From Escherichia phage ECO103 4-12-1: a stretch of DNA of 59,406 nt. The position numbers were made by a program, and so were the translations under genes. Positions 583 to 2,712 of this stretch are shown here, in pieces; the first letter of the stretch is position 1; every line of letters starts with the position of its first letter. Below the pieces are notes generated by a model. That model was not told the origin of the DNA. It saw only the letters and a program-made list of their open reading frames with translations, and ran no database searches. The stretch is from sequence record OR844651; one strand, 5' to 3'.

Positions 583-2712
583 TCAGTACACAAAGCGGCA
601 AGTGATTTGCACCCGATGTTTCCGTGGTGGCTGCGGCATTTCGTACATCGACTTGTCGCGCATCATTACCTGCTCAAGTACCTGACGGACTCGTAGCGTG
701 GATTGGGGAGCATCTTTGTCTGGGTAATTAGCTTTATCGGCATAGTGCTGCAAAACTTGAGACACTTTTGCAAATGATTGCGGGACGTCCTTGTCAGGGT
801 ATTCCGCCGTCATTGATACATGCTGAATTACCTGCTGAACCGCAAGCGGTTTATGCAGTGTGCTCCAATCCGGGTAAGACGCATCCTGTGCCGCCTGCTG
901 AATGATCTGGCTGACAATAAGCGGCCGGAACATGGTACCGGGATCAGGGAAATCGTCAATCTGCGCAACGTGTTCTAACACCTGATTTACAATCGCGTCC
1001 GACGTCGGCAGGTGGACGTCCGGATAGTCGGCCGGGATCGCGATGTGCTCCAGCACCTGATTGACCGTCAGGTGGGATACCGGGACAGTCGGGTCAGGGT
1101 ACGTCGCGCGGAACGCCACTGGCTGCATCACCTGACGAACATGGATACCGGACTCGGCGACTTCGCCCGGAGGCGGCATGTACTGGTACCGCGTCACCAG
1201 TTCAACAAATTGCGCCAGCGGAGCGTACGAGATCGGGAGCCGCAGCGGTTGGGCTTTCACCACCTTCTCTAAGAACTGCGGCACGATCTGAACCTTGCTC
1301 GCTTCCCACATGTCGTTCGGGTCTTCGTAGTCCAGCGCTTTCATGACGTGGTACGCCGTGGCCGCACTAACGATGGCCGACGTTGTAGGGATGCCCGGGT
1401 CAGGGTAGTCCGTTGCCTGCTGCACCACCGACATGCGAACAGCGTCAGCGCGCGACCACACCAGCAGGTTAATCGGAGGCGTGTACACTTCCGCCCGCAC
1501 CGCATATCCGCGTACCTGTTTAACGCGCGTCCGAGACAGCACCGGGAGCAAGTCAGACTTGACCAAGAACTGAGACGAAACATGTTTGGTGCGCATCGTG
1601 GATAGCGGGATGGTTCGTTGGTTATCGCTAAATTGCAGCACCAGCGGCGTCAGGGACTTCGCACGCGTGTAACTGATAGGAAGCGACACCTGATACTCGC
1701 AAACAGCGTACGACGTCACTGCGGCCGCGTGCTCGACGCCGACAGTCGGGTCAACGAAGTCCGCCGGGATGACCGCCTGTGACAGCGTCTGCGCGGCGAA
1801 CACGTTTGACCGGGGCATCGGGATCGGCAGCGCGGTAACGGCCTGCGACAATTCCTGCGCCACGCGGGTCATTGAGCGCGGCAGACGTTCAACCGGGCGC
1901 TTCTGCGCGGCCAGAACCACGTTCGACTTCACGGACGCAGGAGTCGTGTACATCGGCAGCGGATGGGCCTGAACCACCAGCGTCGATTCATGGCGAACGA
2001 ACACACCAGACGTCGGGACGTACGGGATGTCGATCGACTGCAATACCAGATTCCAGACCTGCTTCGTCCGGGTCTTCGACCACATTTCATCCGGCAGCGG
2101 GAAGTCACCGAGCGTCGCGGCCACCACGGCAAACGACCACGCCGATTTCACCATGTCGTACGAAATGGTCACGATAGGCGATGCCAGCACGGACAACGTC
2201 ACCGCCTGCTTCACGATGTTGTATGAAATCGGGTCATCGATCGGCCGCTGGACAATGGCGTAATTCCACAACGTGTACAGACTTTCCGGAGAAATGACTT
2301 CCGACAACGGCGGTACGACGTCGTGCTGCGTGACATACTCATACACCGCATCTGCGTAAAGCGGTGGCCGTTCCGTGGCCGCCTGACCGATAGCCTCGCA
2401 GATCATTTCGGCCGCCATAAATTGCGGCTCTTTGACCAGCGCTTCGCAAATCATTGTCGATGCGCGGATCTCCATCTTTTGAATCGCCAGCACTTCGCCG
2501 ACCAGTCTGGCGGCGCGGAAGATGGACGGCAATTTACCGTCCCACTGCAAAACCTCCCCGAAGTTTTTCGCCGCGTCCATGTTCAATGCGGAAATGGCTA
2601 ACGCTTCGCCCACACACCGGGACAGGTATGTGAGTTTGGGCTTCTCGCCATTCCACTGCAAGGCTTCGCCGACCAACTTGGCCGCGCTGATACCTACGTC
2701 TTCATCAGCCAC
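583..2712 (-). CDS. distal tail fibre-like protein with two internal tandem-repeat families
   Basis: 709 aa; N-terminal ~30-aa repeats (VGEALQWNGEKP / FGEVLQWDGKLP / VGEVLAIQ / ICEALVKEP / ICEAIGQ); C-terminal ~8 repeats of the form QVLEHxAxxxxYPD; last gene of tail module. Confidence 0.5.
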   Translation of the reverse strand: MADEDVGISAAKLVGEALQWNGEKPKLTYLSRCVGEALAISALNMDAAKNFGEVLQWDGKLPSIFRAARLVGEVLAIQKMEIRASTMICEALVKEPQFMAAEMICEAIGQAATERPPLYADAVYEYVTQHDVVPPLSEVISPESLYTLWNYAIVQRPIDDPISYNIVKQAVTLSVLASPIVTISYDMVKSAWSFAVVAATLGDFPLPDEMWSKTRTKQVWNLVLQSIDIPYVPTSGVFVRHESTLVVQAHPLPMYTTPASVKSNVVLAAQKRPVERLPRSMTRVAQELSQAVTALPIPMPRSNVFAAQTLSQAVIPADFVDPTVGVEHAAAVTSYAVCEYQVSLPISYTRAKSLTPLVLQFSDNQRTIPLSTMRTKHVSSQFLVKSDLLPVLSRTRVKQVRGYAVRAEVYTPPINLLVWSRADAVRMSVVQQATDYPDPGIPTTSAIVSAATAYHVMKALDYEDPNDMWEASKVQIVPQFLEKVVKAQPLRLPISYAPLAQFVELVTRYQYMPPPGEVAESGIHVRQVMQPVAFRATYPDPTVPVSHLTVNQVLEHIAIPADYPDVHLPTSDAIVNQVLEHVAQIDDFPDPGTMFRPLIVSQIIQQAAQDASYPDWSTLHKPLAVQQVIQHVSMTAEYPDKDVPQSFAKVSQVLQHYADKANYPDKDAPQSTLRVRQVLEQVMMRDKSMYEMPQPPRKHRVQITCRFVY

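Follow-up and report, generated by a model that had tools for sequence, protein, structure and literature searches.

A candidate fibre-module protein of Chi-like flagellotropic phages composed of about thirty short tandem units

Phage Chi is the classic flagellotropic phage, and both the make-up of its fibre and the determinants of its host range among flagellin serotypes are still disputed. The classical measurement of the Chi fibre is about 200 nm by 2 nm. The gene regarded as that of the 'tail fibre' differs by paper, being CHI_31 in one (PMC10399903) and YSD1_29, from phage YSD1, in another (PMC12264135). The product of YSD1_29, BH2P, is the only protein for which labelling of the long fibre has been shown, by immunogold (Dunstan 2019, as cited in PMC12264135). 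Chi and YSD1 have near-identical virions and differing host ranges (PMC12264135; PMC10399903). After travelling on the flagellum, Chi-like phages need a second receptor, as documented by their dependence on lipopolysaccharide (LPS; PMC6631126), and AcrAB-TolC has been listed as such (PMC9266447). Between the J-like protein (BH2P) and the lysis cassette, these phages carry six genes whose products lack a solved structure, and the largest of them encodes a repetitive protein of 709 amino acids (aa). Here we describe this protein in Escherichia phage ECO103 4-12-1 (sequence record OR844651), in which it is encoded at positions 583..2712 on the minus strand of the window, namely the whole stretch of 59,406 nucleotides that was analysed. 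It is the orthologue of Chi gp36 and, as judged from its sequence, would be a repeat-built member of the tail-fibre module whose repeat and fold are both undescribed.

The 709 codons and the stop codon form a single open reading frame (ORF) at 583..2712, and the ORF map, orthology, a PHROG profile and purifying selection all back it as a coding sequence. This and all other features of the window mentioned below are on the minus strand unless stated otherwise. As an ORF, the gene is nothing new, for it belongs squarely to PHROG 7226 (full-length match, with aa 43-709 covering all 667 positions of the profile; hmmscan E=0, 1290.9 bits) and to the orthologue group of Chi gp36 (CHI_36, AIU37965.1) and YSD1_35 (VCU41446.1), with which it shares its length, its position and 93.5-95% of its amino acids. 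Both orthologues are annotated as 'hypothetical protein', and PHROG 7226 is labelled 'unknown function'. The best match of the first 8 kb of the window is PK4 (97.8%), and many Salmonella Chi-like siphophages (Chivirus, Casjensviridae) match at 96-98%. The GTG start of the ORF follows the stop codon of the preceding gene after a gap of 9 nt, and a Shine-Dalgarno-like AAGGGGG (2717..2723), read from the sequence, is located 4 nt upstream of it. An alternative start, the ATG at codon 45, is used in some records, including that of phage Ariobarzanes. We favour the GTG because of the Shine-Dalgarno-like sequence, because distant homologues align from 'MAD...' at residue 1, because the first copy of the N-terminal repeat sits upstream of the codon-45 ATG, and because the frame is under purifying selection (the ratio of nonsynonymous to synonymous substitution rates, omega, being 0.11-0.19 against Chi, YSD1 and SeF2). 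The ORFs of 67-116 aa on the plus strand inside the gene were rejected as spurious products of high GC content, with the minus frame being the one under purifying selection. The gene has been treated unevenly in public records: GenBank NC_021315 (phage Chi) is linearised within it and thus holds a truncated copy, and in phages 35 and 37 it is split into two pieces annotated as 'site-specific recombinase' or 'putative capsid protein'. No Rfam family reached its gathering score in the whole 59.4-kb window.

The protein is built almost wholly of about 30 short tandem units. We compared it with itself in a dot-plot scored with BLOSUM62, and calculated periodicity z-scores against 300 shuffles, the maximum among which was about 4.5. 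An offset of 25 residues across aa 522-696 gave z=13.9, and a period of 37 residues across aa 11-84 gave z=8.7, bearing out the view of the preliminary description that tandem repeats make up this protein. We read three parts in it: six short 'GEAL' units at aa 8-117, a single family of 20-28-aa units that occupies aa 118-696 with about 24 copies, and a tail of 13 residues. The N-terminal GEAL block (2362..2691) comprises units N1-N6 of 16-21 aa with a super-period of 37 aa, and not of about 30 residues as had been noted initially. Two copies of this super-period are identical at 17 of 37 positions, each consisting of two 16-20-aa sub-units of the form 'xxAxxxGEALxxxxxxP', and two further units of the type 'MICEAL/MICEAI' bring the total in the block to six. 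At the other end, the 25-aa 'YPD' repeats B18-B24 (aa 522-696; 625..1149) are the best conserved. Six of them are complete (aa 522-671; mean pairwise identity 39%) and the seventh (aa 672-696) is degenerate; as recognisable copies occur also at aa 421-445 and 446-472, the earlier count of 'about eight' C-terminal repeats was a fair one. The protein ends with a near-invariant tail, RKHRVQITCRFVY (aa 697-709; 586..624), in which a basic patch precedes an alternating hydrophobic stretch with an aromatic last residue. The entropy of this tail is 0 and distant members of the family have similar endings.

Between the two blocks lie the degenerate body repeats B1-B17 (aa 118-521; 1150..2361; units of 20-28 aa), which were delimited by the spacing of a conserved Ser and by profile self-alignment. 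In the family alignment this Ser, often in P-x-S, recurs every 20-28 residues over aa 141-671 and ends each body unit. Iterating a repeat hidden Markov model (HMM) from the single sequence recovers eight or nine units, and the remaining ones are visible by HMM-HMM comparison. When the alignment of 96 family sequences was compared with itself by hhalign, aa 65-689 aligned with aa 8-638 (E=9e-58), with further off-diagonals pairing 203-686 with 108-586 (E=1e-39) and 258-696 with 117-544 (E=4e-27). The 25-aa unit profile is in register at 118-141, 187-212, 236-260, 303-323, 374-391, 421-442 and 474-493. All 17 body units score positively against that profile, each being weak alone (E 0.0015-0.29, for units delimited by hand), and the N-terminal units find no significant match to it (E 0.2-0.8). 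Hence the initial division into two repeat families is a defensible one; what has to be revised is the extent of the second family, which starts at about aa 118 and fills four fifths of the protein. The consensus of 569 units reads x-phi-x-V-x-Q-V-phi-E-Q-V-A-phi-x-x-x-[YF]-P-D-[PK]-D-x-P-Q-S. In it, an amphipathic segment about 12 residues long, with its spacing being i/i+3/i+4, leads into a loop that is aromatic and rich in Pro.

At the DNA level, Tandem Repeats Finder detected no array in the gene, and its direct repeats, spaced at 75 nt, are only 63-81% identical over 25-27 nt, indicating that the repeats are ancient and diverged. Nevertheless, whole units have been gained and lost, and the expectation that copy number changes among related genomes is borne out by two exact in-register duplications and by single-unit deletions in distant relatives. 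In phage Utah and other variants with a protein of 731 aa, an exact tandem duplication of 66 nt (+22 aa) copies unit B12 (aa 372-393; 1534..1599). Among these variants are Siskin, sal2, BPS2, BPS4, TS13 and ABTNLsp1, as well as three clusters of proteins (15 member sequences). In Salmonella phage KKP 3829, a single record, an exact duplication of 111 nt (+37 aa) adds a copy of the N-terminal 37-aa unit (aa 35-71; 2500..2610) and yields 746 aa. Both junctions fall at homologous positions of adjacent diverged units and carry microhomologies of 7-13 nt (GGCGAAG in KKP 3829). Some distant relatives lack exactly one unit each, by 23 aa (P0042-44) or about 25 aa (P0046-51), and the number of N-terminal units differs widely as well. 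We rejected a hypermutable repeat locus of the contingency type, for Tandem Repeats Finder gave no array and the duplications arose at microhomologies of 7-13 nt. An assembly artefact, which the preliminary description had raised as a way in which its claim might fail, is rejected, because more than 100 genomes, all independent, share this 709-aa architecture and the gene contains no long identical DNA repeats.

We favour, with about an even chance of being right, the reading that the repeat protein is an elongated, virion-associated fibre or adhesin of Chi-like phages, either belonging to their host-recognition apparatus or decorating it. Such a role is suggested by the position of the gene in its operon, the synteny and replaceability of the surrounding cassette, the fusion of one relative to a discoidin-type domain, the evolutionary rate, the unit-sized insertions and deletions, and the composition of the fibre. 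If this is the case, the protein would be the terminal component of a cassette that contains the J-like BH2P, a DUF2793 protein and three or four LamG-like paralogues, and its tandem units would build an elongated, probably oligomeric virion fibre or adhesin. The conserved C-terminal YPD repeats and the terminal strand would act as a constant scaffold or docking end, and the variable N-terminal beta-strand repeats and the middle units as the evolving, host-facing part. Through its many similar modules the protein could bind a repetitive host surface multivalently, each contact being weak by itself; the flagellar filament is the obvious candidate for this surface. Unequal recombination between adjacent diverged units, by which whole units are gained or lost, would shift length and valency. 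Virion association, fibrous fold, oligomeric state, orientation and ligand are all features that we infer.

The late genes of the window are arranged in the order known from Chi: the major tail protein, the tape measure (14609..18904), the distal tail protein (12915..14603), a BH1P-like protein and two small proteins are followed by the 1296-aa J-like BH2P (7726..11616; Chi gp30/YSD1_29, the Chi 'minor tail protein' of PDB 8VJH), a 246-aa DUF2793 protein (6986..7726; CHI_31), three paralogues of about 330 aa (3963..6976; PHROG 2448), a 408-aa protein (2722..3948; PHROG 10924), the 709-aa ORF and the lysis genes. The repeat protein had been described as a distal tail protein at the end of the tail module. 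Its location was given correctly, as the gene is the last of the tail genes and is followed by a terminator-like hairpin and the lysis genes. The name has to be abandoned, since the distal tail protein, which in siphophages makes a ring located between tail tube and hub, is in these phages the 562-aa gp26/CHI_26 directly after the tape measure, annotated so in Chi and YSD1, and the 709-aa ORF lies further downstream. The hairpin (536..562) resembles an intrinsic terminator, with an 8-bp stem (TTAGCGGG/CCCGCTAA), a loop of 5 nt and a T6 run, and begins 20 nt past the stop codon. This 27-nt sequence is identical in all six Chivirus loci examined, and is predicted to divide the tail operon, with the 709-aa gene as its last member, from the lysis cassette.

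The order of genes for J-like protein, DUF2793 protein, ~330-aa paralogues, repeat protein and lysis proteins is common to the window, SeF2, Chi and YSD1. It is the same in Dunedinvirus JS26 and Lavrentievavirus pPM_01, and is kept even in three distant metagenomic contigs (L012-L014) whose repeat proteins are only about 20% identical. At the same position, other Casjensviridae have fibre or spike genes of a different kind: Klebsiella phage PIN1 carries a short J protein, a 260-aa protein and a single 939-aa tail fibre/spike, and Xylella phage Salvo, Burkholderia phage BcepNazgul, Aeromonas phage LAh_7 and Ruegeria phage V11 each have yet another arrangement after J. The family HMM of the repeat protein had no match in any of these five phages. 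Tail-tube homologues are present in 25 phages of Klebsiella, and Klebsiella is missing among the listed hosts of repeat-protein matches, which are Salmonella, Proteus, Providencia, Escherichia, Serratia, Hafnia, Cronobacter and others. All these hosts belong to motile genera, except for a few records labelled Staphylococcus or Enterococcus that are probably mislabelled. Short records of the OR84xxxx series named after Staphylococcus, Enterococcus or Listeria phages carry near-identical Chi-like fragments and are probably mislabelled or contaminant contigs. From these gene arrangements we conclude that the region after J is an exchangeable cassette for receptor recognition, and that the repeat protein belongs to its Chi-type version.

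In a database of 5.8 billion proteins, 51 clusters resemble the 709-aa protein, all of them from Chi-like phages. A profile search of 1.84 billion representatives added about 100 distant members of 460-1536 aa, and a scan of genome contigs returned just two phage-like contigs from metagenome-assembled genomes. The longest relative, of 1536 aa, is encoded at 8001..12611 of a 229-kb metagenome contig (L004), and combines glycine-rich segments and an F5/8-type-C (discoidin) domain with about 20 YPD-type repeats. Such a fusion fits an extracellular binding role for the repeats. The 1536-aa protein, whose neighbours on the contig include another F5/8-type-C protein, may serve a jumbo phage or a bacterium as an adhesin that has this repeat in common with gp36.

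Among the tail genes that align without gaps between the window and Chi, the repeat protein has the highest values of both the rate of nonsynonymous substitution per site (dN 0.035) and omega (0.13). The neighbouring 408-aa protein alone is more diverged: with an identity of about 80%, in an alignment with gaps, it is the most diverged protein of the tail module against Chi and YSD1. Between Chi and YSD1 themselves, gp36 holds 27 of the 47 amino-acid differences found from the tail tube to the endolysin, those elsewhere including six in BH2P, three in gp35 and none in gp31-34; those of gp36 are concentrated at aa 156-432. Within Chivirus, the N-terminal block varies most (0.35 bits per site), followed by the middle (0.13), the YPD repeats (0.05) and the tail (0). 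The composition of BH2P bears on the fibre as well. Its C-terminal half looks globular rather than like a repetitive fibre shaft, and its last ~110 aa are of low complexity and rich in Pro, Asp, Glu and Gly (PPGQKPGGGDGPW...PEDPDTDPPTPPDPP). Considering this end together with the classical dimensions of the fibre, other cassette proteins plausibly contribute to it.

Several observations weigh against the proposed fibre or adhesin role. The polarity of conservation, with a variable N-terminus and a conserved C-terminus, is opposite to that of most tail fibres. The clustered Chi/YSD1 differences have the look of a patch introduced by recombination, with omega well below 1, and are a lead rather than a sign of adaptation. 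The phyletic pattern cannot single out the repeat protein, because the whole cassette, including the C-terminal extension of BH2P, is swapped en bloc. The protein is absent from all PDB entries, including that of the Chi tail tip (8VJH), which contains the neighbouring BH2P. The literature that we searched, which did not include two key papers, yielded no mention of CHI_36 or YSD1_35 and no proteome report of them; nor did the repeat anatomy, the natural copy-number variants or the concentration of Chi/YSD1 differences in gp36 appear in it. Finally, AlphaFold2 reached a mean predicted local distance difference test score (pLDDT) of only 29 with 22 sequences and 43 with 98 sequences, the repeat body remaining below 50.

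In the second AlphaFold2 model, the N-terminal 110 aa are at pLDDT 55-74 and form six beta strands of 12-14 residues, one per GEAL unit. A Foldseek search of this low-confidence model against the PDB gave no significant match (best E 0.61), the weak ones being beta-solenoids, and in BFVD the only matches were members of its own family. Nor did Pfam, NCBIfam or the PDB contain any match to the 709-aa protein, whether by sequence or by profile. At an effective number of sequences (Neff) of about 6, the failure of the monomer model is compatible with an obligately oligomeric, intertwined fibre or with a new fold, and proves neither. Several known fibrous and repeat folds, the beta-solenoid not among them, were considered and rejected. 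Collagen-like folding is at odds with a Gly content of 2.3% and the lack of G-X-Y, and a continuous heptad coiled coil with helix-like stretches of about 12 residues that are broken every 25 aa by a Pro-rich loop. A Pfam tail-fibre domain (triple beta-helix or beta-spiral) was dismissed as there is no Pfam or NCBIfam match, and a leucine-rich repeat (LRR) as no LRR model matches at E<=0.1 and the consensus differs from LxxLxLxxN/CxL; the sole LRR-type match of the family profile is a weak one to a single LRR/KAP-NTPase protein (E=1.9e-4).

Phage fibre cassettes commonly end in an assembly factor just downstream of the fibre genes, as is the case for lambda Tfa and T4 gp38/gp57. The terminal position of the repeat gene within its cassette is the same, which raises the alternative, unlikely in our view, that the protein serves morphogenesis without entering the virion: as a scaffold, ruler or chaperone, it would be required for assembling or folding the fibre or the LamG-like proteins and be discarded afterwards. 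Its absence from the solved Chi and YSD1 structures and the failure of the monomer to fold in the models would both be expected of such a factor, and the conserved C-terminus could bind a constant partner. Nevertheless, 709 aa and about 30 repeats far exceed the known fibre chaperones, and the combination of the highest dN among the ungapped tail genes with tolerated changes in copy number is more typical of exposed structural proteins. The fusion of one relative to a discoidin-type binding domain also speaks against a discarded factor. If gp36 is not in virions after all, it would be an unusually large fibre-assembly factor.

The positional and evolutionary evidence for a fibre or adhesin of the host-recognition apparatus would serve equally well for a virion adhesin that forms a lateral or terminal appendage of the tail tip and binds a secondary cell-surface receptor such as LPS or an outer-membrane complex. 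The need for a second receptor, noted above (PMC6631126; PMC9266447), and the weak lectin signatures of ConA/LamG type in the neighbouring paralogues lend this alternative some appeal. The present data do not separate binding to a secondary receptor from binding to a filament; even so, a long array of near-identical modules would suit a periodic filament better than a single membrane protein, and we consider the secondary-receptor adhesin quite unlikely. A role outside adsorption, in lysis timing, superinfection exclusion or anti-defence, with the tail adjacency reflecting late expression only, is very unlikely even though the gene directly adjoins the lysis cassette and its product has no recognisable structural domain, as the conserved terminator-like hairpin sets the gene apart from the lysis genes and makes it part of the tail operon, DUF2793 and LamG-like genes accompany it in very distant phages that have other lysis genes, it is lost along with the fibre cassette in relatives, and no transmembrane segment or signal peptide is visible in the sequence of its product.

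Returning to the favoured fibre or adhesin, it is attractive to speculate further that gp36 itself is the part of the fibre that lies in the flagellar grooves, where about 24 modules of an undescribed fold contact successive outer domains of flagellin and the variable units set the serotype. We regard this specific version as a doubtful one. If true, the modules of gp36 would be the sliding 'nut' of the nut-and-bolt model, its length and valency being tuned by the gain or loss of whole units, and its variable units would explain why Chi and YSD1 differ in host range despite near-identical virions. Whatever its precise role, gp36 offers a concrete handle on fibre composition and host range, and possibly a new fibrous repeat fold.

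The genes on either side of the repeat gene deserve a brief description. In its C-terminal half, the 408-aa protein is related to the PHROG 2448 trio as a divergent fourth paralogue (blastp E=7e-4; phrog_2448 E=1e-7). The trio itself, in tandem at 3963..6976, consists of proteins of 339, 320 and 335 aa with mutual identities of 24-36%, a weak ConA/Laminin_G_3-like signal and no solved relative; none of the three differs between Chi and YSD1. Publications on Chi refer to the DUF2793 protein (CHI_31) as 'tail fiber protein'. There is a weak match (E=0.0027) between its aa 43-112 and a chain of PDB 8GTC, the structure of the distal tail/baseplate of roseophage R4C, in which this chain occurs nine times. 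The match hints that the DUF2793 protein is a component attached to the baseplate. On the other side, the first ORF of the lysis cassette (182..535) probably starts at the ATG at 520, preceded by GAGGAAG, and not at the GTG at 535. Its PHROG is that of an Rz-like spanin, GenBank records name it 'lysis protein B', and it has an N-terminal hydrophobic segment.

How does the repeat protein compare with systems already described? Its closest counterpart is Chi gp36, from which the copy in the window differs mainly in the N-terminal and middle repeats, with nothing structural being different. BH2P, the tail fibre protein labelled by experiment, is encoded in the same cassette of the same phages and likewise ranks with the tail proteins that have diverged more (95.9% against Chi). 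It is nonetheless the product of a different gene, blastp gives no similarity between the two (E=9.5), and its J-like N-terminal hub is solved in 8VJH, whereas the repeat protein has no solved relative. Sequence comparison led us to reject homology of the repeat protein to BH2P or to the neighbouring tail proteins. Solenoid proteins with units of 20-29 aa, be they LRR proteins or beta-solenoids such as the curli subunit CsgA, bactofilin and ice-binding proteins, are similar to the repeat protein, whose units have 20-28 aa, in unit length and in the periodic placing of hydrophobic residues. Solenoids are usually modelled readily by AlphaFold2. The repeat protein differs from them in that no Pfam repeat model matches at E<=0.1, Foldseek gives no E below 0.6, and the pLDDT of the body stays under 50. 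The multi-protein long tail fibres of tailed phages, for instance those of T4 (gp34-gp37), offer a further comparison. There is no sequence or detectable fold similarity between them and the repeat protein, the 25-aa unit is unlike known fibre repeats, the polarity of conservation is reversed with respect to T4-type fibres, and the repeat protein is a candidate rather than an established virion protein. Nevertheless, in both cases a string of genes follows those of the tip, hub and baseplate, with a repetitive product at the end of the tail module, and like fibres of the T4 type, the repeat protein is long, evolves fast and tolerates the insertion and deletion of whole units.

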